Below the pieces are notes generated by a model. It was not told the origin of the DNA and did not search any database. It saw nothing but the letters and a program-made list of their open reading frames with translations. Source: a virus. Taken from it: 64,000 nucleotides of DNA. The position numbers and the translations under genes are program-made. Shown here piece after piece: positions 31,027-57,551 of the stretch (within the stretch, counting starts at the first letter, position 1; each line of letters starts with the position of its first letter). The stretch lies in IMG/VR virus record IMGVR_UViG_3300045988_136773. One strand, written 5' to 3'.

Positions 31027-31040
31027 TACAGAAATGGTAG

Positions 31041-34007: not shown

Positions 34008-34346
34008 ATGGATGAAATTGTATTCACTACACCTGCACTGTTAGATTTTCTTTCTCAGATAGATGAATTAGGACCGTATCCATTGGAACTACATGAGAAC
34101 GATAACAATATACAAATTGTAATCGGAGATTCCGTCTATAGCATCAATTCAAACCATGCAGATCAGATTCAAGTAAAAACTGACGTTGTACAAGAAGTAT
34201 CTGACATTGCAGATTCCACTTGTGAAACCTTATCTAATTCTGACGACAGCCTAGAACCAATCGAATCCGGAATAATAAAGGAATTTGCAAAGACACTACT
34301 TGTCGGCGGATTAGTTCGACTAACAAACAAAGTTCTAAAGAAATGA
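34008..34346 (+). CDS. hypothetical acidic protein
   Basis: 112 aa. The ATG abuts the upstream stop (TAAATG). Confidence 0.5.
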   Translation: MDEIVFTTPALLDFLSQIDELGPYPLELHENDNNIQIVIGDSVYSINSNHADQIQVKTDVVQEVSDIADSTCETLSNSDDSLEPIESGIIKEFAKTLLVGGLVRLTNKVLKK

Positions 34347-38444: not shown

Positions 38445-38786
38445 ATGAAGATCAAGATGAATCGTAAGGTAGCGGCAAAGTCCGCTGTTAAAGGTCGCAG
38501 AGTAATGGCTGATACTGACGTAGCACCGGAGGCATCTGAACTGTTGTTTGAAGCAGAAGATGTCGCAGATCTGGTGTCAGAAGTTACTGGTGAAGATGTA
38601 GATGTAACCGCAGATGATACTTCTGTAACATTCGATATTGGTGAGGATTCTTACGTTGTAGAGGCAGAGGGTACTGAAGATGCTGTAGAGTCTTGTACCA
38701 CCATTACCCGTAAGAAGAAAGCCGTATCTGCATCTACTAATCGCAGAGCAGGTCGGCAGATTAAGTGTGTAGCACGTCGTAAGTAA
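38445..38786 (+). CDS. hypothetical protein with basic termini and acidic core
   Basis: 113 aa, RBS AGGAGG. It has a 'KKKAVSASTNRR' motif near the C-terminus. Confidence 0.55.
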   Translation: MKIKMNRKVAAKSAVKGRRVMADTDVAPEASELLFEAEDVADLVSEVTGEDVDVTADDTSVTFDIGEDSYVVEAEGTEDAVESCTTITRKKKAVSASTNRRAGRQIKCVARRK

Positions 38787-43749: not shown

Positions 43750-43962
43750 GTGTACCGATATATTAAAGCCGCTGAAGAGCCATCTGCACTGGAAGAAAGC
43801 TTAGATGGTCTAAAAGACGATTTTAATTACATCATGGATGGCTTAGACAAGCTAAGCCGGACTGGTGATGATTCTGCTAAGGCTGCATTGTCTATTGCTT
43901 TAAGTCTTAGTGATGCAATTGAAAATCATATAGAGCAGGTATCTAGTCAAATTTTGAAGTAA
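43750..43962 (+). CDS. hypothetical small acidic protein (MYRYIK leader)
   Basis: 70 aa, GTG start after GGTAGGTGA. Confidence 0.5.
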   Translation: MYRYIKAAEEPSALEESLDGLKDDFNYIMDGLDKLSRTGDDSAKAALSIALSLSDAIENHIEQVSSQILK

Positions 43963-43981
43963 TAGAATAGGAGATAGTATT

Positions 43982-45202
43982 ATGAAGATTTATAAGAAAA
44001 GCAAAACAGTTTCTGCATCATATGACATTTATGCAGATTCCACTACAGAACATGATTACTTAGAAGAATTAAAGGATGCGTGTGGCAAAATTTCAAACCA
44101 CATTGTCAATGTTGATTATTTTGATGACGATCTCAATTCATATGTTGTGATTTATGACAAACCAGCACGAAGCGACTACGCATGGAAACGAAAGAAGACA
44201 CTTATTTCTGGATTAGAGAGATACGGCATATCTGCTAAATACATCAGCAGCATGGAAAATCTTAAAATGGTTGAGATTGCTATTGCAGATGCGGATACAG
44301 TAGAATCATCTAGTAATATCAGTGCGTCATCTAAGTCAGATAACTTTGTTTTCTACTATAACAGAAAGCGTATGTATTCTGGAGATGGTACAGGATTTGC
44401 ACGAGTAATCGAAAAGCTATGTAAGAATGAAAAGGTGAATGCTGCACTGCAAGATTGGTGCAATCAGTTTGGTGATCCATTTGATTTTGATGGTACACCA
44501 AGAGACACCGCAAATGTATTTGCACAGCTCATTGAACAGGACTTTCATGAACAGCAGAATGACTTCTACGCAGATGGATCTGGCACTGGTATTAATTTTG
44601 AGTGCTTCCCAGAATCTCAGGAATCTGTAAATTCCGCATCTGCATCTGCAAAGAAATCAGTTACTGCATCTACCAGTGCAGATGATATCTACGCAGATGA
44701 CATTGAATCTATTCTGAATGATGCTGGATTCTTCCCAGTGTATGTAGAAAAGACAAGAACTCACCTTGGAACAGAGTTTATTGTAAATTATGACACAGAT
44801 GAGCATGAACTAAATGATCTGCTGTTTACATTGGAAAACAACGGATACATTGCAACAGTAGATGAAACTACTTCAGATGGTGTTCTTTTGTTCCTGGAGC
44901 AGGTGGATTCCACACCGAAATATCTGTATCAAGTATCTTTTGGTAGTTGGGTTGAAACCGTAGAAATGGATGATGAAACATCTGACTATCAAGAAATTGT
45001 AGATACTCTAATCGATCAGCTTGAAGCAGAAGGCTCTGAGGGATGCTTTGTTCCTGATGATGAAATTGATACATATCCAGAAGATGAGTATGTTGTTGGC
45101 GGAAACCATGGTCGTGCACTAATTACAAACGGTATCCTTGATATTCAGCCTATTGGATGGAGCAATGACGTACAAGCTTCTACTGATATTGTAACTATGT
45201 AA
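43982..45202 (+). CDS. hypothetical highly acidic protein (MKIYKK...VSAS leader)
   Basis: 406 aa, RBS TAGGAGA. Contains [VI]-[ST]-A-S motifs at residues 10-13, about 113 and about 222, and 'QAST' near the C-terminus. Confidence 0.6.
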   Translation: MKIYKKSKTVSASYDIYADSTTEHDYLEELKDACGKISNHIVNVDYFDDDLNSYVVIYDKPARSDYAWKRKKTLISGLERYGISAKYISSMENLKMVEIAIADADTVESSSNISASSKSDNFVFYYNRKRMYSGDGTGFARVIEKLCKNEKVNAALQDWCNQFGDPFDFDGTPRDTANVFAQLIEQDFHEQQNDFYADGSGTGINFECFPESQESVNSASASAKKSVTASTSADDIYADDIESILNDAGFFPVYVEKTRTHLGTEFIVNYDTDEHELNDLLFTLENNGYIATVDETTSDGVLLFLEQVDSTPKYLYQVSFGSWVETVEMDDETSDYQEIVDTLIDQLEAEGSEGCFVPDDEIDTYPEDEYVVGGNHGRALITNGILDIQPIGWSNDVQASTDIVTM

Positions 45203-45245
45203 TATCCTTCAACAGAATTGCGGTGGATGTCCTCGGACTACACCT

Positions 45246-45276
45246 AAAGAAGTCAGATGCGTCTGGCTTCTTTTTG
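45246..45276 (+). terminator. rho-independent terminator
   Basis: GAAGTCAGA / TCTGGCTTC stem (one G-U pair) with a 4-nt loop, then TTTTT. Confidence 0.6.
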
Positions 45277-45295
45277 TCAAATGGAAGTGATTGTT

Positions 45296-45763
45296 ATGGA
45301 TGATTCTCTTCTTGGAAAGAAGGCAGAAGCCAAAATCAAAGAATGGTTGGATAGACCACAAGATGGGTACTGTTTTGACCGCATACCAGATCAGATGACA
45401 GGATTCTATGGCTCTAAGAATATCTGTGATTTCACGCTATACATATATCCAAATAAGTATTATATTGAATCCAAAGCAACATGGAAAGATCGATTTGACT
45501 TTTCTATGCTTACAGAAAAACAGCATACTGGGCTTACAGAAAAGTCTAAGATCTATGGCGTATACGGAGTAGTCATTGTATTATTTGCAACCTACAAGAG
45601 AGCAATCGTTATAGATATTAGGGAGATCAATCGACTGATACAGTCTGGCAGAAAGTCTATCAATATCAAAACTATGGATAAGATAGGCTTACAGTATCAT
45701 GAGATTGAAACAATCCCTAGCAGAAAGGAATTGCTTGATTACACAGGAGGGTTTCAACTATGA
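45296..45763 (+). CDS. PD-(D/E)xK nuclease, RecU-like Holliday junction resolvase candidate
   Basis: 'ICDFTLYIYPNKYYIESKATWKDRFDFSMLTEKQHTGL' fits the RecU pattern D-F...[IF]E-x-K-x-T...F-x-x-x-x-L-x-x-x-Q. Confidence 0.5.
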   Translation: MDDSLLGKKAEAKIKEWLDRPQDGYCFDRIPDQMTGFYGSKNICDFTLYIYPNKYYIESKATWKDRFDFSMLTEKQHTGLTEKSKIYGVYGVVIVLFATYKRAIVIDIREINRLIQSGRKSINIKTMDKIGLQYHEIETIPSRKELLDYTGGFQL

Positions 45764-46140
45764 CTACAAATCATGAAAACAATGTTTATTCCGCAGGTAT
45801 TACAGATACCATCTATGGTGGAGCATTTGCTGATATTGCTTCGAAGCTTAATGATCGCCACTACAGTATCACTGTCTGCAAAGGTGCACACAGTGAACCG
45901 ATTGTGTCTGTTACAAACACTTTTGTTCCGGAAATTATGCCGATCATTCATGTAAATGCACGAACTATGAAAGACAATGATGGTCTGTGGTGGGTATTGG
46001 ATTTAAAATTCAGCTTTCCGGATTTATGGCAAGAACACGGATCTGACCCGACGGCTGTAAGCTACATGCTGAGTGTATGGGATGCTATTACTCACATTGC
46101 GACAATGTTGAATGAGATTAAGATACCTTACACCGATTAA
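45760..46140 (+). CDS. hypothetical protein
   Basis: 126 aa. The ATG overlaps the upstream stop (ATGA). Confidence 0.55.
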   Translation: MTTNHENNVYSAGITDTIYGGAFADIASKLNDRHYSITVCKGAHSEPIVSVTNTFVPEIMPIIHVNARTMKDNDGLWWVLDLKFSFPDLWQEHGSDPTAVSYMLSVWDAITHIATMLNEIKIPYTD

Positions 46141-46160
46141 GATACTACAAATTCAATGCA

Positions 46161-46211
46161 AAGAAATAGCCTGCTCTGAGATTGACAACTCGGAGCAGGC
46201 TATTTTTTTTT
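46161..46211. terminator. bidirectional rho-independent terminator between convergent + and - strand genes
   Basis: ATAGCCTGCTC(TGAG) / (CTCG)GAGCAGGCTAT stem, with a T9 run on the + strand and an A/T run on the other side. The two arms are the CCTGCTC and GAGCAGG motif copies. Confidence 0.85.
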
Positions 46212-46212
46212 G

Positions 46213-46551
46213 TTATTTAGAATCCAGCAAATCACACATTGCTTTCAGCTTATCCAACTTTTCAGGTTCCGGAATGCTAGATAAGCCAGAAAGTAATTTC
46301 TCATATAGCATTTTTATTGTATTCGCAGTGTCATCATGGGTTTTGCATTCAGATAGACCAAGCAAATAGTCTAGTGACACATGAAATTCATTTGCCATTT
46401 TTATAATGACACCTAGTGAAGGCATAACACTGTTATTTTCTCTTTCATATTTCTGGTATGCACTCCATGATACTCCAAACAGTTCTGCAGCTTGCTGTTG
46501 CGTAATTCCTCTTGCTTTTCTGAGCTCTCGAATCTTACTTGTGAACGACAT
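46213..46551 (-). CDS. XRE-family helix-turn-helix transcriptional regulator
   Basis: 'IRELRKARGITQQQAAELFGVSWSAYQKYERENNSVMPSLGVIIKMANEFHVSLDYLLG' is a canonical HTH_3/XRE domain. Confidence 0.85.
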   Translation of the reverse strand: MSFTSKIRELRKARGITQQQAAELFGVSWSAYQKYERENNSVMPSLGVIIKMANEFHVSLDYLLGLSECKTHDDTANTIKMLYEKLLSGLSSIPEPEKLDKLKAMCDLLDSK

Positions 46552-46597
46552 ATGTATGTCACTTCCTAACCAATCGTTATAGTATTATGTACTCGCA

Positions 46598-46948
46598 TTA
46601 TTGTTGCTTGTCAATGCTATGTACGGCATCTGTGATTAGGTCTAATACAGCATCTCTATGATCTTCAGATAATTGCACATACTTCTTCAGCAGGACCTGC
46701 TCCAGAGGCTTTAAATCATAGTCAGTAGATTTAGCAGATTCTCTAGATGTATTAGTTCTACCAAGTATATCATCTGTAGTCATACCATAAAAGTCTGCTA
46801 GCTTTTGAAGTGCATTTAGACCTAACTCACGCTCTCCATATTCATACTTGATGTACGTAGTATACGGGATACCTGCTCCGATGGAAACATCCTTTTTGCT
46901 CATATTATTCGACAGTCGTATTTTGATTAGTTGATCTTTTAGTTCCAT
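46598..46948 (-). CDS. XRE-family helix-turn-helix transcriptional regulator
   Basis: 'LIKIRLSNNMSKKDVSIGAGIPYTTYIKYEYGERELGLNALQKLADFYGMTTDDILG' is an XRE HTH. The likely start is ATG 46948, after AGGATGGTGA. Confidence 0.8.
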   Translation of the reverse strand: MELKDQLIKIRLSNNMSKKDVSIGAGIPYTTYIKYEYGERELGLNALQKLADFYGMTTDDILGRTNTSRESAKSTDYDLKPLEQVLLKKYVQLSEDHRDAVLDLITDAVHSIDKQQ

Positions 46949-46970
46949 GAAAATCACCATCCTACTATTT

Positions 46971-46999
46971 ATTATACCACGATTGGGTTAATGTGTCAA
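46971..46999 (-). promoter_or_regulatory. consensus sigma-A promoter driving the minus-strand XRE operon
   Basis: The reverse complement reads TTGACA, 17 bp, TATAAT (perfect consensus). Confidence 0.75.
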
Positions 47000-47023
47000 T
47001 GCAATTCTTTATTCCATACCCAT

Positions 47024-47056
47024 TTGTACAATTTATACAAATACGCAGTTGTACAT
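47024..47056. promoter_or_regulatory. candidate operator repeats TTGTACAA / TTATACAA / TTGTACAT
   Basis: Three related 8-mers at 47024, 47033 and 47049 lie between the divergent promoters. The first is a perfect palindrome. Confidence 0.45.
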
Positions 47057-47082
47057 TTGGGTGATTTTTCTATCAAAATCGC

Positions 47083-47111
47083 TTGACAATTTACACATAC
47101 GGGTGTATAAT
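47083..47111 (+). promoter_or_regulatory. consensus sigma-A promoter driving the rightward early operon
   Basis: TTGACA (47083-47088), 17 bp, TATAAT (47106-47111). A 130-nt leader runs to ATG 47244. Confidence 0.75.
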
Positions 47112-47243
47112 GAATATAGGAAGAAACACAAATGGGTAAACATTAAAACGTAGCAATGAATCAGTACCGAGAACATATGTAGCAGGGAATGATAGTGAGA
47201 ACGTAGCTTGATGTTTACGAATACTATTTTGGAGGAATGACTT

Positions 47244-47477
47244 ATGAATATGACTACAATTCGTGTATCACTCAAAATGTTCGATATGAACACTATGGAA
47301 ATCGTAGATAAGCAGGTAGATCTGCCTGTTAATACACATGCGGCTGATGTGCTTATGGGAAGATCACATCTGGGAGAGCGAGAGGTTCTTCATATGTTTG
47401 AGAACCTGCTCCGGTCTATGTCAAACCTTTGTGGTTACACCTATGAAGGATACTACGGAATCGAGGAGAACTTCTGA
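47244..47477 (+). CDS. hypothetical early protein
   Basis: 77 aa, RBS TGGAGGA. Confidence 0.55.
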   Translation: MNMTTIRVSLKMFDMNTMEIVDKQVDLPVNTHAADVLMGRSHLGEREVLHMFENLLRSMSNLCGYTYEGYYGIEENF

Positions 47478-47503
47478 TCATTACGCAGATAGGATGTATA
47501 AAT

Positions 47504-48094
47504 ATGAACTTGATTAAATTTAATGTAGGTAGCTTCTATGAAGCAGTATGGTATGATAGATACTACCATACATACAAAAGAATGTACGAAGCGATTTCTA
47601 AGAGCACATGCACTATTACATTTAAGGATGTAGAATCTCAGGATATTATCACATACAAGCTTCGTAAGGATTATGATTCATTTAGAAATGCAGAAATTGC
47701 GTATCCTTATGGTGCGGATTCCGATTCTCCGATAATTTACGCAACGCATAAGATTTCACTTACGTTTTTTATGGACAACAAGGTCGCTTTAAAGACTTAT
47801 AAAGCTTATGATCTTAACGGAGAAAACAGTTGTTTTGTTCATACAGGTTCTAATAGTTTTGTATTCCATTGCTCAGATTGTCTGAACCAGCTGAATGATC
47901 AGTATATACTGATCACAAACGTTGAAAGTTATTTGGATGCCAGCACCTTTTTAATGTTTATGGAAAATGGATATATCGATATTTGGTATGGTTATAGTCT
48001 AGAGGCATTTATTTGGATTAAACAAAATGGCTTGCCAGTTTCCATCAAAAGCGAAATCGAGTACTTGGAATCAAATCATTTACGTTCAAAATAA
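47504..48094 (+). CDS. hypothetical early protein (F-x-VG-x-x-Y domain family member 1)
   Basis: 196 aa. The N-terminal 'FNVGSFYEAVWYD...CTITFKD...NAEIAYPYG' is shared with the next two genes. Confidence 0.55.
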   Translation: MNLIKFNVGSFYEAVWYDRYYHTYKRMYEAISKSTCTITFKDVESQDIITYKLRKDYDSFRNAEIAYPYGADSDSPIIYATHKISLTFFMDNKVALKTYKAYDLNGENSCFVHTGSNSFVFHCSDCLNQLNDQYILITNVESYLDASTFLMFMENGYIDIWYGYSLEAFIWIKQNGLPVSIKSEIEYLESNHLRSK

Positions 48095-48187
48095 GCATCA
48101 TATTGTGTTTCTGAACCGTTTCACGGAATAAAAAAAGCGGTATCCTACACAAGTATAAATCTAAATAAATTCATGGAGGTATGACAT

Positions 48188-48631
48188 ATGAAACAGTTTG
48201 AAGTCGGCAAAACCTATCAGATGTCAAGTATCTGCAACGCAGATTGCATCTGGGAGTATGTTGTGATAGATAGAACTGCAAAGACCATCACAATTCAGAG
48301 TACGCACAATAGCACTATTAAAAAGTGCAGAGTGCATACAGCAGAATCTAATGCATGCGATGCAGAAACTGTATTTCCGCTTGGAAATTATTCCATGTGT
48401 CCCAAACTGAGAGCAGATTCTCAGAAGATAGTGTCAGAAGATCCAGAACAGCATCAGCTCAATGTAGAATATACAAATCTTCAAAGGGCAATTCTGCTAT
48501 TAGCAAAATCAATGTACATCATGCCAATTGGTAGTTCCCGTAGACTGAGAGCACAAGCGACATTGGATGATTTCAGGAAAAGGCGTGAGGATCTAAAGTC
48601 TAAAGGTGCAAAATTGATTCTAAATGTGTAA
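48188..48631 (+). CDS. hypothetical early protein (family member 2)
   Basis: 147 aa. 'FEVGKTYQMSS...KTITIQS...DAETVFPLG'. Confidence 0.55.
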   Translation: MKQFEVGKTYQMSSICNADCIWEYVVIDRTAKTITIQSTHNSTIKKCRVHTAESNACDAETVFPLGNYSMCPKLRADSQKIVSEDPEQHQLNVEYTNLQRAILLLAKSMYIMPIGSSRRLRAQATLDDFRKRREDLKSKGAKLILNV

Positions 48632-48647
48632 AACCGGAGGTGATTTC

Positions 48648-49205
48648 ATGGGATGGTTTGAAACAACATTTCTACCATCATTCGAACTTGGCAAGCATTA
48701 TGCTCAGTATACTTGGTTGAAGCCATGGCAGTACAAAGGCTTAATGAATCTTGCAAAAAGTAATAACTGGCATATGCTTAGTTCACGGCAACTCAATGTG
48801 ATTCTTAACAACTCTAAAGAGTGGATGAGAACTTGCTATAAAAACTCATACTTGTATATGAGTTCTAAGTATATCGTAGTTACAGAAATCAGCAATTCGA
48901 CTGGCTTCGTTACTATTGATATTCGAGATGCTGCAAAGTTAAAAGCTTTTGAAGTAGGAAAAGTTTATTATGACACCGTATACTATGATGACGAATATGA
49001 TCCGGAGCTTGATGGAGATGAGGGATTTTCTTGTAAGGTGATTTCCAGAGATGATGATTACATCACTGTAGAGGATACAAAGACACACAAAACGCACGTA
49101 TGCAGTATCGATCTCGCATCTACCATTCATTATAATGCAGAAACAATTTACCCACTGCATACTTGTGGTGGAGATTGGTTAGAGCCAATAATTATGGCAA
49201 AGTAG
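48648..49205 (+). CDS. hypothetical early protein (family member 3; domain at C-terminus)
   Basis: ATG 48648 follows GGAGGTGA. The C-terminal half reads 'FEVGKVYYDTVYYDD...DYITVEDT...NAETIYPLH'. Confidence 0.55.
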   Translation: MGWFETTFLPSFELGKHYAQYTWLKPWQYKGLMNLAKSNNWHMLSSRQLNVILNNSKEWMRTCYKNSYLYMSSKYIVVTEISNSTGFVTIDIRDAAKLKAFEVGKVYYDTVYYDDEYDPELDGDEGFSCKVISRDDDYITVEDTKTHKTHVCSIDLASTIHYNAETIYPLHTCGGDWLEPIIMAK

Positions 49206-49219
49206 ATAGGAGGCAGCTT

Positions 49220-49453
49220 ATGTGGATTGCACTTATAAATCCGAAGAACCAAATTATAAATTCTGATATGCTGACAGATATTCGTATCGATTCAACAGGA
49301 CGCTTTCCGTTCGTACAGTACTATTCAGGTGAGCACATGATTGGCAGAGAATGCTTTACCCATTATGAAGATGCAGAAAACAGAGTTGAGGCTTTGAGAA
49401 CTGCTATGAATGCTAGCAATCAATACCGTACATGGTATGGTCCTACAGTATAA
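49220..49453 (+). CDS. hypothetical small protein
   Basis: ATG 49220 follows TAGGAGG. 77 aa. Confidence 0.5.
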   Translation: MWIALINPKNQIINSDMLTDIRIDSTGRFPFVQYYSGEHMIGRECFTHYEDAENRVEALRTAMNASNQYRTWYGPTV

Positions 49454-49474
49454 CATTGGAGGTGAAATCTAGCT

Positions 49475-49648
49475 ATGTCGCACAGAATATTTACGCTTAC
49501 TGACACAGCAAAGGATAAGCATATGACGTTGGATGATGCTGTCAATAGTGGCGAAATCAAAACCGTAGAAACGTTTGAAACTTATGATGACGCACTTGAC
49601 GCATTTTTTACAAGATATTGTGATTTTGACGCATATGGTATTGAATAA
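49475..49648 (+). CDS. hypothetical small protein (57 aa, below ORF-track cutoff)
   Basis: ATG 49475 follows TGGAGGTGA. 'MSHRIFTLTDTAKDKHMTLDDAV...'. A hairpin at 49665-49690 follows. Confidence 0.45.
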   Translation: MSHRIFTLTDTAKDKHMTLDDAVNSGEIKTVETFETYDDALDAFFTRYCDFDAYGIE

Positions 49649-49737
49649 CCAGATTGATAATACAAACCTGCTTTATGCTTAGAGCAGGTTAGTAATTTAA
49701 GTATTCTAAGTAAATTAACAGTGGAGGGTAAACTATT

Positions 49738-50655
49738 ATGGACAGAAAATACTTTACAATCAATGAGGATGGGGCTAGAGTAGCACATGAACTCATGTCT
49801 TTCAGTGATTACAAATCTGGAAGTGCTACTGCTGAATATCATGCTACTGTAGATGTAGCATATGACATTGCAGACAAAGTGGCTGATAAACGTCCAGATG
49901 ATGCTGAAAGAGCTTATAGCATAGCAGAACGCTATTCTAAGAAAATGGCTGACTACTATAATCGAGATATTAGTATTGGGAAAATGTGTCCATCTGTTAT
50001 GATTTCTGGAGGAAGCAATTTCCCTGTAAAGAAGAAAGAACGACAAATTGCCGCATGGGATCGAAATCATGAATTTTATAATGCTACTCAGAAATTGATC
50101 GATAAACTGAATAGTATGTTAAACGGTTCTGAGGTAATCCGATCTAATGACGAAAAGGCAATTGAGAAGTTAGAGTATAAAATTGCTGATTTGAAAGAAC
50201 TGCAAGATCAAATGAAATCGGCAAACAAGGCAATTCGATTGAAAGATACAGAGCATGGCGATGACCTGCTCAGAGAAATGGGATTCAGTGAAGATGCGAT
50301 CCGTAAACTGAGAGAGCCGGATTTCTGTGGTAGAATAGGATACCCTAGTTTCTTACTCACGAACAACAATGCAAACATTCATAGATTGGAAGAGCGTTTG
50401 AAATCTTTAAAATCTGTGAAAGCGAAAGGGACTGCTGAGATTGAGTATTATGGATTTCGTGTTGTGGAGAATACGGAAGCCATGCGGTATCAGATTTTAT
50501 TTGATGAGAAGCCAGATGCTGATGTAAGGTCTATTCTGAAAAGTAATGGGTTCAAATGGGCACCTTCTCAGAGTGCATGGCAGCGACAAATCACAACAGC
50601 TGGTAAGTACGCATTGGATAAGGTTGTAAACATTATTAAAGATTTAGAGAGGTGA
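49738..50655 (+). CDS. DUF3560-like protein
   Basis: The C-terminal 'YQILFDEKPDADVRSILKSNGFKWAPSQSAWQRQ' matches the DUF3560 hallmark (F-x-x-kP...L-K-x-x-GF-[RK]-W-x-P-x-x-x-AWQR) as I recall it. Confidence 0.55.
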   Translation: MDRKYFTINEDGARVAHELMSFSDYKSGSATAEYHATVDVAYDIADKVADKRPDDAERAYSIAERYSKKMADYYNRDISIGKMCPSVMISGGSNFPVKKKERQIAAWDRNHEFYNATQKLIDKLNSMLNGSEVIRSNDEKAIEKLEYKIADLKELQDQMKSANKAIRLKDTEHGDDLLREMGFSEDAIRKLREPDFCGRIGYPSFLLTNNNANIHRLEERLKSLKSVKAKGTAEIEYYGFRVVENTEAMRYQILFDEKPDADVRSILKSNGFKWAPSQSAWQRQITTAGKYALDKVVNIIKDLER

Positions 50656-50662
50656 TAGATTT

Positions 50663-51346
50663 ATGTCTCGTGGGGATATGATGAAGATATCGTGCACAGA
50701 TCATCTTGGTAATTCATATGATTCTATAACTTCTATGTGCGAAGCATATGGGATTAACCCTGCTACGTTTTCAAAGCGCATTCAAAGAGGTAAAACACTA
50801 GAGCAGGCTCTGACAGAACCTGTTAGATCAAGATTGTGTCAAAATATGAATCAAGTTATTGACGCAGATGGTAATGTTTTTTCTTCTTTAAACGCAATGT
50901 GCAAACATTACGACATGGATTACAATACATATGTAAAAATAAGAGAATCTGGTATGTCTAAAAAGGAAGCACTTGCAGTCCCGAAACAGACAAGCAGATC
51001 ATGTGTAGACCATCTAGGAAATCAATTTAAATCCACCTCTGACATGTGCAGATATTATGACATGGATTACTCTGTATATCAAAATCGGATTAGGCGTGGA
51101 TGGTCTGTCAAAGACGCATTAACAACAAAATTGCGTAACAGACAGTCAAATAAGGTCTGCCGCACTGTATATCATTCATACAAACTAATCTATTTAGGCA
51201 ATTCCTATATCGTATATGCGACATCTCCACATGAAGCGATACAAAAATGGGAATTGTTTAAAGGCTATCTAAATCCTCAACCTGGTGTAGATATCCTGGA
51301 GCTAAAGCCTGGGACTGAAATTCACGATTATTGTACAATTATTTAG
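50663..51346 (+). CDS. DNA-binding protein candidate with three tandem NUMOD1-like HTH repeats
   Basis: Three repeats of about 45 aa: 'CTDHLGNSYDSITSMCEAYGINPATFSKRIQRGKTLEQAL', 'VIDADGNVFSSLNAMCKHYDMDYNTYVKIRESGMSKKEAL' and 'CVDHLGNQFKSTSDMCRYYDMDYSVYQNRIRRGWSVKDAL'. No nuclease motif was seen. Confidence 0.5.
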   Translation: MSRGDMMKISCTDHLGNSYDSITSMCEAYGINPATFSKRIQRGKTLEQALTEPVRSRLCQNMNQVIDADGNVFSSLNAMCKHYDMDYNTYVKIRESGMSKKEALAVPKQTSRSCVDHLGNQFKSTSDMCRYYDMDYSVYQNRIRRGWSVKDALTTKLRNRQSNKVCRTVYHSYKLIYLGNSYIVYATSPHEAIQKWELFKGYLNPQPGVDILELKPGTEIHDYCTII

Positions 51347-51420
51347 CTTATGCAGATATCGCACAATCGTTATACATTGTGTAGGGAAGTGTTACACAAT
51401 AACTTGATGAGGTGATATGT

Positions 51421-52290
51421 ATGTTTAACAAGGATAATCTCTGGACTATGGATCAGATTGGATTTGTGTTTCTACCAGATAGCAAACCGGATACATGGAA
51501 AATCATTGATCCTACTACTGATACAGAAGTAGGTGAGTACTATGAACTGGATGCTACTGTATATACCTATGCTGATTCTACACCAGATGATAAGAATGAA
51601 ATCATTGGTGCATTTCAGATGTTTCGGGATAGACCAGAGTACAGTGTTTACAGAGCACATAAGCTGATTCACGGTCTTAACACTGATAGCTTTAGCACAT
51701 TAGATGATGCATCAGATTTGTATGACACATTGATTGCTGGATGTGCAATTATGCTGTATGGTGAAGAGTATGGATTAAAGCGTGCAGATAGTTTCCTAAG
51801 ATGGATTCGGAATACCGATTTTTATCAAGCACCTGCATCTGCAAAGTATCATGACGCATTCGAAGGTGGTCTTTTGAAACACTCTCTGGATGTAGCCTAT
51901 CATATCACGGACCTGCTCCAGTTAGAATCATTTTCAACTGTGAATATTGCATCTTGTATATTAGTAGCATTGACACATGATCTTTGTAAGATTGGATTGT
52001 ACAAGCCTTATCTGAAGAATGTCAAGAGTGAAGAAACAGGCCAGTGGGAAAAAGAACGTGCATATACATACAATGACGCAAATATTCCTCTTGGGCATGG
52101 TGCAGCATCCTTGTATATTACTCAGAAGTTTTTCCATCTGAGTTTAGAAGAAGCCCTTGCAATTCGGTGGCATATGGGCAGATGGAACATGTGTGATGAT
52201 GAAGTTGGGGAATATCATGTAGCAGTAAAGAAATATCCGCTTGTATATATGCTCCAGTTTGCTGATCAACTGTCTATTAAAGAGTACTAA
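51421..52290 (+). CDS. HD-domain phosphohydrolase
   Basis: 'YHDAFEGGLLKHSLDV', 'ALTHDLCKIG', 'GHGAAS' and 'RWHMG' fit the H...HD...D metal-binding pattern. ATG 51421 follows GAGGTGA. Confidence 0.75.
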   Translation: MFNKDNLWTMDQIGFVFLPDSKPDTWKIIDPTTDTEVGEYYELDATVYTYADSTPDDKNEIIGAFQMFRDRPEYSVYRAHKLIHGLNTDSFSTLDDASDLYDTLIAGCAIMLYGEEYGLKRADSFLRWIRNTDFYQAPASAKYHDAFEGGLLKHSLDVAYHITDLLQLESFSTVNIASCILVALTHDLCKIGLYKPYLKNVKSEETGQWEKERAYTYNDANIPLGHGAASLYITQKFFHLSLEEALAIRWHMGRWNMCDDEVGEYHVAVKKYPLVYMLQFADQLSIKEY

Positions 52291-52362
52291 TTGGTAAACC
52301 TTATATACCTGTGACTAATACACACAAGCACTGTGTGTACAACAGGAAAGGTGATATTAATT

Positions 52363-53088
52363 ATGCTGAGATATGTAAAACACAGTCCTATTACTGCATC
52401 TGTGTCTGGTCCAGTTGAACCCGACACTGTATACGAGCTTGCACTGTATATCGAAAACGACGGAAATCTTTACCGTCAAATGATTGTACCTACAATCAAG
52501 AACATGCAGCGTAAGATTAAGTCAGGTAAATATGATGACTCTCAGGCAGTCAAGGCTTGGCAGTATGTTGCTGACGAAGGTGTTCGTCGATATGGTAAGG
52601 AATTCGGCAATGGCGGCAACAGTGTTGCTTGGGTAAACAAGAATACTCGAATCGCCATTGCAGAAGAACTGAAGGATTACTATGATGATCTGGTACAAGA
52701 TCCAGACAGTATTTCATCTGCTACTAAGATTGAAAAGAAAACTGTATCTGCATCTACAAAGAAGTATCGTGCAAAGGGAAAGAAGTCCGTTGAAGCTGCT
52801 AGTGTGATCCAGAATGGTCTGAGTGAATATAAGCCGTGGTCTGGTGCAAAAGACACATGGGAAATCCTGGAGAAGTTTGGAAAGCTGGACGAACTGGAAA
52901 ATTACATTGATGAAATGTTCTATGATGAATCCCGTGGTGAAGGTGTCATTGGTGAAACTGAACTGAATGACCTGCTCCGGTTTGAACCAGAACATATCTA
53001 TGAATATGTAGGTCTATACTACAATCCGGATACTGATGAAGTATCAGATGAACCATTTGACGAAGATGATGAAGGGGACTACGAGTAA
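52363..53088 (+). CDS. hypothetical protein (MLRYVK...ITAS leader)
   Basis: ATG 52363 follows AAAGGTGA. 241 aa. Contains 'KKTVSASTKKY' internally and has an acidic C-terminus. Confidence 0.55.
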   Translation: MLRYVKHSPITASVSGPVEPDTVYELALYIENDGNLYRQMIVPTIKNMQRKIKSGKYDDSQAVKAWQYVADEGVRRYGKEFGNGGNSVAWVNKNTRIAIAEELKDYYDDLVQDPDSISSATKIEKKTVSASTKKYRAKGKKSVEAASVIQNGLSEYKPWSGAKDTWEILEKFGKLDELENYIDEMFYDESRGEGVIGETELNDLLRFEPEHIYEYVGLYYNPDTDEVSDEPFDEDDEGDYE

Positions 53089-53309
53089 TGGTACGATATA
53101 TTAAAGCAGGTTACACAATGGACAATGTAGATGCCATGGAAGAGAAGTTGTACGACTATTTTGACGTAGATGGCGGCGGTGCAAAGGATCTACTTGAAGC
53201 CATTATAAAGGCTCTGGATTATGATACGAAAGGCGAAATTTACGAGTACATCATTCGTGCATATGATGTTGATAGCTATTTTGAAGAATCAGAAGATGAT
53301 TCTGAATAA
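53088..53309 (+). CDS. hypothetical small acidic protein (MVRYIK leader)
   Basis: 73 aa. The ATG overlaps the upstream stop (TAATG). Confidence 0.55.
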   Translation: MVRYIKAGYTMDNVDAMEEKLYDYFDVDGGGAKDLLEAIIKALDYDTKGEIYEYIIRAYDVDSYFEESEDDSE

Positions 53310-53339
53310 TATTGATTGCTTTGATGCTGCTAACTACGA

Positions 53340-53368
53340 TTGAATTTTCATCATGATTCTGGTATAAT
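53340..53368 (+). promoter_or_regulatory. sigma-A promoter with extended -10
   Basis: TTGAAT (53340-53345), 17 bp, TGgTATAAT (tataat at 53363-53368). Confidence 0.65.
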
Positions 53369-53403
53369 ACAAATATATTATGGATATGTCGGAGGTCATT
53401 TAC

Positions 53404-53934
53404 ATGAAAATATATTCTAGTTCTGGTAGAAAATCAGTATGTATCAACATTACAGTTGAATTCATTGGAAGCGTGATTGAGTGTTCTAAAACAGTTCCCT
53501 TTGGAAAGATAAATCTTACACCACAGGAGATGTTTGATTTCACTGATTTCGTTGAAGATATTGGTGGTCTTATTGATACACTTGATTTTGAGATTATGGA
53601 TGAACATCCTAGCAGATATGCAAAGTCAGCATCTTATTATTATACTTTTTATCCAACAGATTCTGACTTTGATGTTTGCTATGAATACTTGTACTTTTTA
53701 AGAATATCCACTCATGAAAGACAGAGTGAATCTGAAAATCCATTTCCGAAGTATTACCCAAAGACTGCACAACAATATAAAATGCCAAAAAGTAAATCTG
53801 GTATGCAGCATCACAAACATATCAAAGTAATTGTCAATGACAAGACATATGACACATATGATGATGCGTTTGAAGCAGTCAAGAAGAAATTCGAGAATAT
53901 TCAAAGACAGAGTGACAAACTCAATGGTAAATAG
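53404..53934 (+). CDS. hypothetical protein
   Basis: ATG 53404 follows GGAGGT. 176 aa, beginning MKIYSSS. Confidence 0.5.
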   Translation: MKIYSSSGRKSVCINITVEFIGSVIECSKTVPFGKINLTPQEMFDFTDFVEDIGGLIDTLDFEIMDEHPSRYAKSASYYYTFYPTDSDFDVCYEYLYFLRISTHERQSESENPFPKYYPKTAQQYKMPKSKSGMQHHKHIKVIVNDKTYDTYDDAFEAVKKKFENIQRQSDKLNGK

Positions 53935-53944
53935 GGGTGAATCT

Positions 53945-54304
53945 GTGAAAATTAAAAAAATGCGGATTTATGCCGCAGACGATGATGAATTCACAAGTTC
54001 AAATTATGATCCTGACGAAACATATGATAATGTATCAGACTCACTGGATGATTTATCTGACAGTGTAGACGATATGCAGGAATCTGTAGATGATGCAGTA
54101 GTTGATGAAGATCCAGTCGATATTGAAATGGATAACAACATTGCAAATCACTATATCGCTGAGTGTGAATCATGTCATGGTGTGTTTATTTCTGCCATGG
54201 AAGAAACTGATCAGGAGATTGAAAAGATTACTGGTACCTGTCCACTGTGTGATAAGCCAACAGATCAGTACCTAAAGTGGATCATCAAAGAACTTGAAAA
54301 ATGA
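53945..54304 (+). CDS. hypothetical acidic protein with C-terminal zinc ribbon
   Basis: GTG 53945 follows AGGGGTGA. 'CESCHG...(24 aa)...CPLCD'. Confidence 0.5.
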   Translation: MKIKKMRIYAADDDEFTSSNYDPDETYDNVSDSLDDLSDSVDDMQESVDDAVVDEDPVDIEMDNNIANHYIAECESCHGVFISAMEETDQEIEKITGTCPLCDKPTDQYLKWIIKELEK

Positions 54305-54314
54305 GGTGCGATGC

Positions 54315-54770
54315 GTGGATTGGACAATCTTAATTGTTCCTGTCGCATCTCTGTTATCCGCAGTATCAGTTGCATTGCTGAACAATTGGGATAAGATCAA
54401 TCCCAATAAAAAGCGTGTAACTGACCTGCTCCAACTTGTAACAGCATTAAAAAAGTCCGCTGATGCTACACAGGGTGATGTTAAAAAGCTTGGAGATCAG
54501 CTTACTAACATATCCTCAGCAGAGCGGACTTTGCTGCAAACAAGTATATTAGATTTGTGTCACGGAATACAAAAAGATATTGAGTATGGTGATATTGATT
54601 ACTCAGAGAAACTGAAACAACTTATCATCCTATATCGAGAATATCATGCCTGTGGATTCAATAACCAAGGAAAGCTGTATTTCAATGACACAATCGAGAA
54701 AGCGGCAGAAGATAATAATATATTAGTACATGAATTGATGAATCAGTATTTTTCTGATTATCAACCGTAA
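54315..54770 (+). CDS. membrane-anchored protein (N-terminal TM helix)
   Basis: GTG 54315 follows GAGGTG. 'WTILIVPVASLLSAVSVALLNNW' is a single transmembrane segment, followed by a soluble domain. Confidence 0.5.
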   Translation: MDWTILIVPVASLLSAVSVALLNNWDKINPNKKRVTDLLQLVTALKKSADATQGDVKKLGDQLTNISSAERTLLQTSILDLCHGIQKDIEYGDIDYSEKLKQLIILYREYHACGFNNQGKLYFNDTIEKAAEDNNILVHELMNQYFSDYQP

Positions 54771-54784
54771 AGGAGAGACGAGTT

Positions 54785-55162
54785 ATGTGGGATGAATTTT
54801 TTAAATATCTTGTAGCATTTGCGTTTACTGTAGTATCAGCTGCAACCACTACGATTGTACTGCCTGCTCTAGCTAGATGGCTGAAATCTAAGTCGGACAG
54901 TGAAGTTATCAAATCTGGAATCGATGATCTTGCACAGACTACAGGGACCTGTGTAGACTATTTAGAGCAGACGGTTGTAACTGAACTAAAAGCACAAAAC
55001 AAATGGAATTCTGAAACACAGAAAGAAGTTTTGAATATGGCTATTGAGCAGGTTATTACTGGGCTGACAAACGCCACAAAGCGAACCCTGGAAGCTGGAA
55101 ATATTCACGCTACTGTAGAAAGATACATTGAGGCATACATTCAATCAAAAAAGAACCAGTAA
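54785..55162 (+). CDS. holin-like protein (LL-H holin family-like)
   Basis: 125 aa. It has an N-terminal TM helix 'YLVAFAFTVVSAATTTIVLPALARWL' and then an amphipathic region containing 'VDYLEQTVV'. Its size and layout match Holin_LLH. Confidence 0.45.
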   Translation: MWDEFFKYLVAFAFTVVSAATTTIVLPALARWLKSKSDSEVIKSGIDDLAQTTGTCVDYLEQTVVTELKAQNKWNSETQKEVLNMAIEQVITGLTNATKRTLEAGNIHATVERYIEAYIQSKKNQ

Positions 55163-55165
55163 TGC

Positions 55166-55194
55166 TTGACTTTTCTGCTGACACAAGGTATAAT
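55166..55194 (+). promoter_or_regulatory. sigma-A promoter upstream of the PRTase-like gene cluster
   Basis: TTGACT (55166-55171), 17 bp, TATAAT (55189-55194), then GGAGGT and ATG 55212. Confidence 0.7.
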
Positions 55195-55211
55195 GCAGAT
55201 GGAGGTATAAG

Positions 55212-55997
55212 ATGAAAAGATATATCAAAAGTGGAATCCAATTTGATTCTGACAATCAACAATATACATTTGACTTTACAATTGATTTACCAGACGATAT
55301 CATAGACATTGTACCACCAAAGCTATACAGATCATCTATAAGAAATAGTGTTTACTGGTTTGGTTATCTATTCAAAGACACTGCATCTTCAAAACAGAGA
55401 AGTGACTTCATTCATGCTATTAAGGGGATTGGTAATTCTAAAATTGCAGATCATGAATTAAGACAGTTCATAGAATTACCTCTCGGAGAGCTGGATAAGC
55501 AATTTGGAATGTATAACATAGATTGTCTTGTGTACCCAGTATCTAACCGGAGTAAGCTAGTGAACAAAATCATTTCTGTTATCAATTCTTATACATCACA
55601 TGATAAGCATTCTGCAAGCTACCAATTGGTGAAATCTATTCCAACAAAAATTGAATTTGACTGGGAATCATTTGAAATTGATAATGGATATGACACTAAC
55701 AAATACAATCAGATGAAGAAGTATGTAGAAACAACATTACTGCCAGCAATTCATGAACTTGATTATTTTTCACTAGCAGCAAATGTAAAACCGAAGTACA
55801 GAAAGTACATCAAAGATTACCTTGGGTTCATTTCTCAAGATCAGCTGGATAGTTATGCTAGTGCACAGGGACAAAATATTCTTGTTGTAGATGACATTAA
55901 CACGTCCGGTTCTACCCTGGATGAAATTCTTAGAGTTTTGAATAGAGTGAATCGAAATGCAAATATTTTTGTGTTTACGCTAATTGGTAATATGTGA
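55212..55997 (+). CDS. type I phosphoribosyltransferase-like protein (MKRYIK leader)
   Basis: The PRPP-binding loop 'ILVVDDINTSGSTLDEI' lies about 35 aa from the C-terminus (ComF/PRTase-like layout). No N-terminal zinc finger. Confidence 0.6.
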   Translation: MKRYIKSGIQFDSDNQQYTFDFTIDLPDDIIDIVPPKLYRSSIRNSVYWFGYLFKDTASSKQRSDFIHAIKGIGNSKIADHELRQFIELPLGELDKQFGMYNIDCLVYPVSNRSKLVNKIISVINSYTSHDKHSASYQLVKSIPTKIEFDWESFEIDNGYDTNKYNQMKKYVETTLLPAIHELDYFSLAANVKPKYRKYIKDYLGFISQDQLDSYASAQGQNILVVDDINTSGSTLDEILRVLNRVNRNANIFVFTLIGNM

Positions 55998-56009
55998 AGG
56001 AGATATAGT

Positions 56010-56663
56010 ATGAAGATCTATGTTAAATCGTCTGAATCGATTCTTGCATCTAGTTTCAATCGTGCAAGAGCCCATATGAACAGAGAACTGTGTGCATTCA
56101 TTACAGCGTTTCGGGATTCTGATGAATCTGGAAATCCATATTCACTGAAAGAAAAACGACAGAGAAACAAAGAGTTAGAAAGAGAAATTAAGTCATCTGG
56201 TCTAACATATGTCAAAGCAAAAGGCGGATTTATTGAGAATGCCGGGACCACCAATGCTGTGAGAGTCGAAGAGGAGACATTCTGTGTTATTAACAATAGA
56301 TACGCTCCAAATGATTTTATAAAACTTGCGATTCACTGGTGTGGTATGTTTGACCAGGATGCTGTACTGGTCACAGAACCAAATCCAATTCGCAGATCTG
56401 ATGGTCATCCAGATGCAGGAAAGCCGATCGATATCATTGGACGGTATTATGACAAGCATGGTAATGTAGAGATGGAATTTCATAATGCGTCAGTGAAAGA
56501 TGCAGAAGAATTCTTTACTAATCTATACGGTAAAGACTTTGTACTATCATCTACGGATATTCATGCTACAGAAAGCCGTCAAATTTACAGTGTTAGCGGA
56601 AGAGTAATGGCTGCACGAGATTTCAAATGCAAATACCCTGAACTAGTAGATATCGAGGAATAG
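56010..56663 (+). CDS. hypothetical protein (MKIYVK...ILAS leader)
   Basis: 217 aa, RBS GAAGGAGA. Confidence 0.55.
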   Translation: MKIYVKSSESILASSFNRARAHMNRELCAFITAFRDSDESGNPYSLKEKRQRNKELEREIKSSGLTYVKAKGGFIENAGTTNAVRVEEETFCVINNRYAPNDFIKLAIHWCGMFDQDAVLVTEPNPIRRSDGHPDAGKPIDIIGRYYDKHGNVEMEFHNASVKDAEEFFTNLYGKDFVLSSTDIHATESRQIYSVSGRVMAARDFKCKYPELVDIEE

Positions 56664-56667
56664 TATT

Positions 56668-57090
56668 GTGAAACGATATATTAAATGCTCTGTAGAAACA
56701 CCAAGAGCAGGAATCTTTTGGATTATTGACAATCAGATTGTGTCTGTTTACGACGAAGTTAACACTTCTTATAATCCACTGGAGCAGGATGACCTGCTCC
56801 ACAAAGAAATCTGGAACATGCTAAAGCATAATTACAAGTGCAATAACAAAGTAGTTCCTTATGATTTTTACCCAAGAGGTCGGGTGATGATATACCCTGT
56901 AAGGAACAGTTCCGGTGAATTTCAATACTATGATTGTTTGATTTACGGAGATTCTTGTATCTTGAATAATTCAGATTTACGAGATACAATTATTGATGAA
57001 TTTCGACTATATTTGAAATCATGTGAGGTTTCGTTTGAGGGAAAGTTCTCTGTGGACGGCACACACTATACTTGTCATAATTGTAGATGA
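56668..57090 (+). CDS. hypothetical protein, FWI-D / YPRGRV family paralog 1 (MKRYIK leader)
   Basis: 140 aa, GTG start. 'GIFWIIDNQIV', 'HKEIWNML' and 'YDFYPRGRVMIYP', ending in 'YTCHNC'. Confidence 0.55.
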   Translation: MKRYIKCSVETPRAGIFWIIDNQIVSVYDEVNTSYNPLEQDDLLHKEIWNMLKHNYKCNNKVVPYDFYPRGRVMIYPVRNSSGEFQYYDCLIYGDSCILNNSDLRDTIIDEFRLYLKSCEVSFEGKFSVDGTHYTCHNCR

Positions 57091-57117
57091 CAAGTGTCAA
57101 TTGAAGGTGGTGGTTCT

Positions 57118-57511: not shown

Positions 57512-57551
57512 ATACCATGTAGGCAGTTAATGCTTACATGGTATTTTTTTG
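57512..57551 (+). terminator. rho-independent terminator
   Basis: ATACCATGTA / TACATGGTAT 10-bp stem with a 13-nt loop, then a T7 run. Its left arm abuts a CAATCGTTATA motif. Confidence 0.8.

Follow-up and report, generated by a model that had tools for sequence, protein, structure and literature searches.

A short N-terminal leader on unrelated proteins of gut myoviruses resembles a targeting and processing tag for the phage head

The 64-kb window analyzed here (64,000 nucleotides of the viral record IMGVR_UViG_3300045988_136773) is part of a phage genome of ~146 kb assembled from human gut metagenomes. Eight of its genes begin with the same short N-terminal leader, M-x-[RI]-Y-[IVK]-K, which is the subject of this study. 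The window matches scaffold_51 of ENA ERZ28573323, IMGVR_UViG_3300045988_122658 is 99% identical to it, and its genes lie on the + strand almost throughout. A megablast search for a close cultured phage returned no match. The best matches to the major capsid protein (MCP), at ~25% identity, come from large myoviruses of Streptococcus, Bacillus, and Listeria.

A preliminary description of this DNA had listed the eight leader starts, and all of them are present where it placed them, each with a Shine-Dalgarno-like sequence upstream (Table 1). The motif stands at the N-terminus of 8 of the 81 called genes, compared with 0.005 expected from composition (Poisson P ~1e-23); it was defined post hoc and was independently replicated in relatives. 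Inside window proteins, [RI]Y[IVK]K was seen once against 1.3 expected, and a search for start-codon triplets followed by the motif, in all frames of both strands, returned nothing beyond the eight gene starts. Scores from a position-specific scoring matrix (PSSM) trained solely on leaders of other phages were bimodal in the window: the eight genes scored +3.7 to +23.6 bits and all others -8 bits or less. Two weaker candidates proposed at the time are not counted here: MRIYAAD (53960) is internal to a gene starting at 53924 and scored -19 bits, and MKIYSSS (53404) scored -8 bits. The eight proteins are, as had been suggested, mutually unrelated, with no BLASTP similarity after trimming of the first 10 residues and with different Pfam domains or none. 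The codons TAT and AAA are used in 8/8 window leaders (backgrounds 0.71 and 0.57), and CGATATATTAAA is identical in three of the genes.

The window proteins that carry the leader have pI values of 4.05-6.2. The call of a phosphoribosyltransferase (PRTase)-like enzyme at 55212 was borne out by an AlphaFold2 (AF2) model, for which the best Foldseek match was ComF 7p0h (E 1.9e-5), ahead of PurR and APRT/HGPRT enzymes. Residues 1-6 of this model have pLDDT < 50, and the fold starts at the strand formed by residues 8-12. In the AF2 model of 56010, pLDDT stays below 50 over residues 1-14, and helix 14-25 is the first element of the fold. Similarity of 56010 to S-adenosylmethionine (SAM) lyases is distant: it scored 27.7 bits against Pfam SAM-lyase (threshold 28), and its top two Foldseek matches, both phage SAM lyases, are weak (E 6e-3, TM-score 0.28-0.39). 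In both predicted structures, the leader is a flexible appendix outside the fold.

The leader of the gene at 16866 is atypical, with R and Q at positions 7-8 instead of small residues. Directly downstream it is abutted by a homolog of YafQ/RelE-type toxins (17049-17396, 115 aa, Pfam E 1.4e-13). The two genes belong to a cassette at 16765-17525 within the tail/baseplate module that has its own sigma-70-like promoter (TTGACT-17-TAGAAT) and a terminator-like hairpin. This cassette looks like a toxin-antitoxin moron with the leader-bearing protein in the antitoxin position.

The head genes are of the T4 type and include one for a prohead protease whose C-terminal half is a coiled-coil scaffold. 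Pfam S77 matches the N-terminal domain of 11/11 clade proteases (best E 4.9e-9; the window domain scored 27.5 bits against a gathering threshold of 27), and His75 and Ser130 are invariant among them. By tblastn, the window protease matches cyanophage gp21; sequence and profile searches of the PDB with the protease gave no significant match. The MCP starts MTIKATHK, and T-even gp23 starts MTIKTK.

A short motif, [ILV]-[TS]-A-[SG] and close variants, recurs among these head proteins (arrows mark putative cuts). The scaffold part of the window fusion contains LTAST, ISASR, VTAST, and ITAST, with a mean of 3.7 copies of the motif in scaffold parts across the clade. IAAST stands at the protease/scaffold junction, and ...F-T-x-I-A-A-S-T is invariant at the end of the protease domain in all clade proteases, several of which also carry a basic N-terminal stretch ending in [IV]-x-A-[SA]. 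The window MCP has the motif at residue 15 (RRKITAG↓T). In 45 non-redundant MCPs, [IVL]xA[SG] occurs at 21 per 1000 in the first 70 residues and at 1.9 per 1000 elsewhere, an 11-fold difference; the propeptide context is A-R-R-P-[IV]-T-A-[SG]-T-S, frequently in two or three copies. Among the leader proteins, the motif is found in 43982 (residues 10, 113, and 227), 52363 (residues 10 and 128), and 56010 (residue 11). A comparable arrangement is known for the pseudorabies virus (PrV) assemblin pUL26, which has a release (R) site, YLQA-T, and a maturation (M) site, VQA-S (PMC4498786). Because both the protease-scaffold layout and the recurring motif match herpesvirus assemblin, the S77 protease of the phage is predicted to cut at (basic)-(basic)-x-[IV]-x-[AS]↓[SG].

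Similar sequences were seen in two other proteins. The endolysin (amidase) at 40783-41811 contains SKNVTASTSS at residue 252, about where the amidase-type match yields to the C-terminal region. Just beyond the window, ~4 kb upstream of the portal gene, L236 encodes at 3947-4144 a 65-aa basic protein, MSIKVKKTKKQTISAS..., whose N-terminus resembles that of the MCP; with a canonical site at residues 13-16, it is a likely protease substrate.

Table 1. Leader genes, head and tail genes, and regulatory elements of the 64-kb window. Arrows mark putative cuts.
Feature	Coordinates	Strand	Details
T4-type portal	363..1844	+	Pfam Portal_T4 on identical gene in L236
Leader gene	16866..17048	+	60 aa, acidic, MKRYVKRQ; PSSM 14.5 bits
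Tail lysozyme/CHAP protein	20712..22877		
gp25-like baseplate wedge protein	23182..23580		
Prohead protease S77 (T4 gp21 family) fused to coiled-coil scaffold	34343..35749	+	468 aa
ACCTTATATA	35331..35340	+	Inside scaffold gene, 453 nt upstream of MCP start; position kept in 11 relatives
Major capsid protein	35784..37220	+	N-terminal propeptide MTIKATHKTPARRKITAG↓TSITAN
Candidate protease substrate beside head genes	38445..38786	+	113 aa, basic ends, acidic middle, KKAVSAST at aa 94-97
ACCTTATATA	43327..43336	+	423 nt upstream of 43750; also before 43982
Leader gene	43750..43962	+	70 aa, pI 4.4, GTG start, MYRYIKAA; PSSM 16.2 bits
Leader modular protein/polyprotein	43982..45202	+	406 aa, MKIYKKSKTVSA↓S
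ACCTTATATA	52298..52307	+	65 nt upstream of 52363; also before 53088
Leader two-module protein	52363..53088	+	241 aa, MLRYVKHSPITA↓S; internal KKTVSA↓ST at aa 128-131
Leader gene	53088..53309	+	73 aa, pI 4.05, MVRYIKAG; PSSM 14.5 bits
Sigma-70-type promoter-like site	55166..55194	+	TTGACT-17-TATAAT, 11/12; before 55212-57486 operon
Leader ComF/PRTase-fold protein	55212..55997	+	261 aa, MKRYIKS↓G
Leader protein, distant SAM-lyase similarity	56010..56663	+	217 aa, MKIYVKSSESILA↓S
Leader gene	56668..57090	+	140 aa, GTG start, MKRYIKCS; PSSM 23.6 bits, best fit to clade consensus
Intrinsic-terminator-like hairpin	57512..57544	+	Closes 55212-57486 operon

The leader itself resembles this putative site. 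Aligned in register, M-K-R-Y-I-K-S↓S of the leader and A-R-R-P-V-T-A↓S of the MCP agree at P6 and P5 (basic), P3 (Ile or Val), and P1/P1' (small), and they differ at P4 (Tyr vs Pro) and P2 (Lys vs Thr). Positions 5-8 of the leader, [IV]-K-[SA]-[SATN], are compatible with the predicted [IV]-x-[AS]↓[SG]. Intermediate forms connect leader and site. Genes neighboring the leader genes in arrays start MKRVVTAST, MKRVIAS, MKRVVAS, MKRVIIAS, MKRVIKAST, or MKKIVAAT.

Leader-like sequences also occur inside proteins. The 43982 protein, which has further protease-type sites at aa 113-116 (ISAS), 227-230 (VTAS), and 397-400 (VQAS), belongs to a family of modular polyproteins of 328-676 aa, with 2-6 modules in shuffled order and no Pfam assignment for the modules. 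In homologs P0040-P0043, the 43982 modules are reordered and spaced by KRK[FY]TVKAS, KRKYVSAS, or KRKYVTAS linkers, and these linkers are the top internal matches to the leader PSSM in each 43982 polyprotein homolog. The second module of 52363 (52744-53088) starts immediately after KKTVSA↓ST and has as its homolog a free-standing hypothetical protein of 73 aa that Listeria P100/A511-like phages encode beside the terminal repeat. This observation concerns both window 52744-53088 and L162 1525-1746.

Two larger families show how the leader joins the folded core. In the SAM-lyase-like family (38 homologs), the leader varies in length and always ends in a hydrophobic residue, any residue, and Ala or Gly, followed by Ser or Gly right before the core SSFNRA...; the ends include SIYA↓S, QPITA↓S, RPVMA↓S, and TIQA↓S, and a few members are nearly leaderless. 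The conserved G-[IV]-R...FDY core of the PRTase-like family (120 homologs) comes after leaders that include MKRYIKS↓G, MKRLIYG↓G, MKITKSNIKS↓G, and MKRLRKTITS↓G. Leaders of both families are variable and basic, and they end without exception in [IV]-x-[AGS]↓[SG] at the edge of the core.

We searched for the leader in related phages by scanning IMG/VR (2.9 million contigs) with the DNA pattern GGAG-spacer-ATGAARMGNTAYRTNAAR, as the preliminary description had proposed. The scan yielded at least 119 loci, at least 37 of them with two or more leader starts, and 185 non-redundant starts among the matches listed, to which the following counts refer. The pattern constrained leader positions 3-6 and left positions 7-8 free; with that pattern the consensus is M, K (94%), R (85%), Y, I (77%) or V, and K (78%) or R. 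Small residues follow, with Ser or Ala at position 7 in 72% of leaders and Ser, Ala, Thr, or Asn at position 8 in 72%, and conservation ends at position 8. Leader genes form arrays, the largest with 11 in 9 kb (L057), followed by seven each in L043 and L113 and six each in L042 and L148. The clade MCP is present on 16 of the 108 listed contigs with leader matches and on 12 of the 20 that reach at least 100 kb; a profile search with this MCP found 72 loci. The leader is a trait of an entire phage clade and not of the window phage alone.

Codon usage in these leaders strengthens the earlier view that the peptide, not the DNA, is conserved. Arg3 is encoded by AGA, CGA, AGG, CGC, CGT, and CGG, Ser7 by both TCN and AGY, and Tyr4 by TAT (62%) and TAC (38%). 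This mixture of synonymous codon families therefore points to a constraint on the peptide. No DNA conservation beyond the peptide requirement was found among the 185 leaders, apart from a mild A-rich bias (AAA for 84% of Lys6 and 73% of Lys2).

The proteins behind the leaders are diverse. Trimmed of their first 10 residues, 181 tagged proteins form 138 clusters by BLASTP; 117 clusters have a single member, and the largest has 14. They are mostly single-domain proteins with a median length of 128 aa, and a membrane-like segment was found in 7 of the 181. Among 149 listed tagged proteins, Pfam matched LRV and BspA-type repeats, SAM-lyase, PRTase, ART-PolyVal, LPD29, phage metallopeptidase, GNAT, DUF5662, RepL, and the Mu transposase C-domain, with most proteins having no match; PHROGs placed them almost entirely in families of unknown function. 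Lineage-specific co-variation of the leader within one genome was not seen: in L159, the SAM-lyase homolog starts MYKLVNTS and its neighbor has the canonical MKRYIKSSE. A literature search for the strings MKRYIK, MKRYIR, and MKRYVK found no paper.

As a cellular control, the identical DNA pattern was run against 185,579 bacterial and archaeal genomes. Among the matches listed, 118 of 120 loci had at most one match, and small residues at positions 7 and 8 were present in 24% and 20% of cellular matches, compared with 73% and 72% of viral ones. Since the listed cellular matches are nearly all single and have small residues at positions 7-8 at no more than background frequency, the tag is not a general N-terminal preference of cellular genes, a possibility that had been raised at the outset. 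The single cellular locus with five matches among those listed is L291, a contig of a Clostridia bacterium metagenome-assembled genome (MAG; JAZLCB010000369.1). This contig is phage-like, seemingly of the same clade, and was binned with the MAG. Another label, that of P0063, is Lachnospiraceae. The hosts of the clade are probably gut or rumen Clostridia, for which the L291 and P0063 labels are weak hints.

The preliminary description had also noted that three leaders end at residues 13-14 in [IV]-[STL]-A-S and read this as a cleavage point. The sequence is indeed present at residues 10-14 of 43982, 52363, and 56010; as a general end of the leader it did not hold up. A second cleavage site as a general feature was rejected, with [IVL]xA[SG] at residues 7-40 in 7.6% of the 185 leaders and in 9.8% of controls. 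The common tag is eight residues long, with any cut most likely after residue 7, and the point at residues 13-14 in three proteins is an additional canonical site, not the end of the common leader.

Upstream elements give mixed indications of when the tagged genes are expressed. The sequence ACCTTATATA occurs in seven exact copies, all on the + strand (4511, 11830, 35331, 38799, 40106, 43327, and 52298; 0.2 expected). Five copies precede structural genes, and two precede the leader genes 43750/43982 and 52363/53088. In 11 related phages, CCTTATATA is kept at a distance of ~450-520 nt before the MCP start, and we regard ACCTTATATA as a candidate late-promoter element of the clade. Four to six tagged genes, spaced by 3-15 nt, lie inside the baseplate operon of L148 and L113, between homologs of window genes 23570 and 25626. 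These arrays and ACCTTATATA are hints of late expression. A different sequence, AATCGTTATA, has five exact copies, all on the + strand, in the replication/accessory region (45604, 46572, 51365, 57503, and 61134), and in other phages ATCGTTATA shows a modest, ~6-fold enrichment in front of leader genes (9 of the 185). AATCGTTATA/ATCGTTATA may represent a second promoter class. Tagged genes are mostly internal to operons.

The closest functional precedent is the T4 capsid targeting sequence (CTS), to which the leader had been likened from the beginning. The T4 internal proteins Ip1-3 and their many relatives in T-even phages have in common just the leader MKTYQEFIAE, which directs their packaging into the scaffolding core and is cut once by gp21 (PMC8442874, PMC12373910, PMC3012670). 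The analogy holds for the logic of the system: in both phages a short N-terminal leader is the sole common feature of unrelated accessory or anti-defense proteins, a protease of the gp21 family and a scaffold core are present, the leader ends in a sequence resembling the cut site of the protease, here a predicted one, and the genes form variable clusters away from the head module. The homologous S77 protease and the match between [IV]-x-A-S and the clade's propeptide/scaffold motif fit as well. The analogy fails for sequence, where just M1, K2, and Y4 coincide, and for the charge of the cargo, which is mostly acidic here and basic in T4. The tag is also eight residues long rather than 10, arrays reach 11 genes, and ~138 families are represented among the matches listed. 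T4 gp21 cuts after [LI]-x-E↓, and the specificity predicted here is [IV]-x-[AS]↓[SG]. Because tag, specificity, cargo charge, and gene number differ, we file this system as one that would work like the CTS and is not a sequence member of the T4 CTS family.

We consider it moderately probable that the leader is a clade-specific targeting and processing tag, similar to the T4 CTS and read by the phage head-assembly machinery. This analysis establishes the motif with its peptide-level conservation and clade restriction, along with the S77 protease, the recurrence of [IV]-x-A-[SG] in MCP propeptides and scaffolds, and a disordered tag. From these we infer that [IV]-x-A-[SG] is where the protease cuts, that the leader is cut, and that tagged proteins are packaged and injected; this is the best-supported of the explanations weighed. 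In such a mechanism, the eight-residue leader would be a minimal copy of the protease recognition sequence at the extreme N-terminus. The disordered tag would dock tagged proteins on the protease/scaffold core during prohead formation. Upon activation, the protease would cut the tag after residue 7, and in 43982, 52363, and 56010 it would cut at the second canonical site, which follows residue 12 or 13. Relatives that are polyproteins would be split into modules at their internal copies of the recognition sequence. The mature cargo would then be kept in the head and enter the next host cell with the DNA. This cargo would comprise the ComF/PRTase-fold protein, the distant SAM-lyase-like protein, and small acidic proteins in the window phage, and proteins with ART-PolyVal, GNAT, LRV-repeat, and metallopeptidase-like domains in relatives.

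Several observations weigh against this proposal. The leader PSSM fails to recover the MCP or scaffold sites of the window, and Tyr4 and Lys6 are near-invariant in the leader where MCP sites have Pro and Thr; the leader must therefore be more than, or unlike, a plain cleavage site. It drifts inside orthologous families (MKRLIYGG, MKRIITGG), and the 185 leaders show no enrichment of a second site downstream. Up to 11 tagged genes per 9 kb, and 30% of the genes in the listed array loci, are many for capsid cargo. The cargo is acidic on average, with a net charge of -0.067 per residue, unlike the basic internal proteins of T4. The 16866 gene lies directly 5' of a YafQ-type toxin gene, where an antitoxin would sit. 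The sigma-70-type promoters of 55212-57090 and of 16866 suggest early expression. Finally, the leader is absent from Streptococcus phage GXN1, the closest isolate tested, whose whole genome was scanned; the scan of cultured phages covered GXN1, and LIS04 and SP-15 were left out.

Some of these points would fit a tag read by a system other than the head, such as a degron through which a host AAA+ protease or that of the phage would clear early effectors at a set time, a motif that docks on a host target, or a localization signal. The N-terminal tag peptide is disordered and basic-hydrophobic, there are tagged operons that look early, the acidic cargo resembles accessory or anti-defense proteins, and one tagged protein is in an antitoxin position, antitoxins being classic protease substrates. 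However, the tag is confined to phages with this type of MCP and protease, it resembles the MCP-propeptide/scaffold motif, and array neighbors have VTAST at the equivalent position. Few tagged proteins (7 of 181) have a membrane-like segment, and the S77 protease is the sole candidate reader that we found. We therefore regard a reader outside the head as unlikely.

Less likely still is a role in expression, in which the first codons or residues are tuned for initiation or early elongation (a translational ramp) and have no targeting function. Residues 3-5 can strongly alter protein yield, and Tyr and Ile codons are reportedly favorable. The position of the motif exactly at the gene start and its A/U-rich codons, including the AAA preference at Lys2 and Lys6 and the uniform TAT and AAA of the window leaders, would agree with such a role. 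In contrast, Arg3 and Ser7 use both codon families and Tyr both codons, and PSSM scores are bimodal, not graded. None of the 73 other window genes has the tag, not even those with the highest expression, which encode MCP, sheath, portal, and scaffold. The missing small residues at positions 7-8 of the listed cellular matches likewise speak against it, and initiation cannot explain linker copies inside polyproteins.

We consider it very improbable that the leader is a recombination joint, that is, DNA conserved at gene starts as microhomology for cassette shuffling with the peptide as a by-product. Tagged genes do lie in tandem, hyperplastic arrays of unrelated open reading frames (ORFs), and the CGATATATTAAA identity in three window genes would suit this idea; yet codons vary widely across the 185 leaders, upstream regions have just the Shine-Dalgarno sequence in common, and residue classes at positions 7-8 are kept via different codon families. 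Common descent of the N-terminal segment, or chance, is the least credible account, for although small paralogous groups exist (up to the 14-member cluster), most clusters are singletons, window proteins are pairwise dissimilar with differing Pfam domains, and chance predicts 0.005 matches. A Sec, Tat, or lipoprotein signal peptide was rejected, given that residues 7-16 are rich in S, T, N, D, E, and K and have no hydrophobic core of 10-20 residues. The strongest evidence against the other explanations is that tag-like linkers occur internally, that the tag is restricted to the clade and encoded by mixed codons, and that highly expressed genes lack it.

The proposed head-directed tag can be compared with other delivery and processing systems. 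Like the phage protein here, herpesvirus assemblin pUL26 is a protease-scaffold fusion with a junction site and scaffold sites. For the junction, the sequences are I-A-A-S-T in the phage and YLQA-T in PrV; for the scaffold, they are [IV]-T-A-S in the phage and VQA-S in PrV, and all follow a hydrophobic-x-Ala↓Ser/Thr pattern. It differs in that the protease here is an S77 phage enzyme with cleavage positions predicted from motif recurrence. We know of no herpesvirus in which such a site serves to label diverse cargo at the N-terminus.

Delivery together with DNA is predicted for the polyvalent proteins that phages and conjugative elements encode (Iyer et al., 2017, PMC5512222). Their domains overlap with the cargo described here (ART-PolyVal, LPD29, metallopeptidase, and GNAT), the idea of effectors that travel with the DNA is common to both, and the 43982 family is similarly multi-module and shuffled. 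In contrast, the putative effectors here are mostly separate small genes, each with its own tag, and modules are seemingly freed by the prohead protease at tag-like linkers, not by embedded zincin peptidases. ADP-ribosyltransferases (ARTs) of the T4 Alt family are packaged and, like the tagged arrays of L148 and L113, are associated with baseplate genes (PMC5512222). For DarB, a large anti-restriction protein of phage P1, an N-terminal segment suffices for entry into the capsid, and it can bring in a reporter as well (PMC9024508); unlike the present tag, that signal has a length of between 9 and 30 residues, is known for one protein, and has no shared consensus, and the P1 protease is HK97-type.

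In the giant phages phiKZ and SPN3US, a prohead protease related to that of T4 acts on many of the internal or ejection proteins (PMC5694885, PMC7411985, PMC10052503). The present tag is short and common to many proteins. Giant-phage propeptides are long and unconserved between proteins, and the site is [SAG]-x-E; to our knowledge, phiKZ and SPN3US have no short common leader. Within the Firmicutes, the N-terminal extension of L27 and the capsid and scaffold leaders of staphylococcal phage 80alpha are cut by the host protease Prp at ...F-A↓S. Both cases involve a short N-terminal extension in Firmicutes and their phages. However, the Prp sequence L-N-L-Q-x-F-A↓S is absent here, the present motif recurs inside the scaffold and MCP, and the phage has its own protease.

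More tentatively, and at somewhat less than even confidence, we propose that MKRYIK[SA][SA] may be a sequence-readable address of a large injectome in T4-superfamily myoviruses (75-250 kb) of gut and rumen Clostridia, with dozens of genes per genome and more than 100 unrelated families docked, trimmed, and delivered. Injected proteins act before phage gene expression and are therefore well placed as counter-defense factors, and outside T4 and P1 they are hardly recognizable from sequence. If the leader is a packaging signal, hundreds of uncharacterized proteins of uncultured gut and rumen phages would become candidate injected effectors, among them ComF/PRTase-fold, SAM-lyase-like, ART, GNAT, and LRV-repeat proteins and many acidic ORFans, and candidate pre-made anti-defense or host-takeover effectors could be listed straight from metagenomes. 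The tag would then also be a portable packaging signal, an eight-residue handle for loading foreign proteins into Firmicutes phages. The T4 internal-protein strategy would be old and widespread, with the tag re-fitted to a protease of assemblin-like specificity. Either way, annotation of the clade can draw on the predicted protease site and on the candidate late promoter.

The window contains further gene groups of note. At 30049-32579, two adjoining paralogs (325 and 512 aa) have ~300 N-terminal residues in common and diverged C-termini. Two helix-turn-helix (HTH) regulators (HTH_3/HTH_19) at 46213-47111 are the sole minus-strand genes in their region and are flanked by divergent 12/12 sigma-70 promoters (46999-46971 on the - strand and 47083-47111 on the + strand), resembling a switch-like control region. 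Among small accessory genes downstream of a UvrD-type helicase, a 79-aa protein (60525-60764) has a Pfam Tad8 match. Three tandem paralogs of 103-107 aa at 61202-62205 have nearly identical N-termini (M..[IL]KDLK.MC). They are followed at 62202-62588 by a 39-aa ORF and then ~380 nt of coding-looking sequence; the near-identical contig L002 has an 81-aa gene at this site, so the window copy may be truncated or frameshifted.

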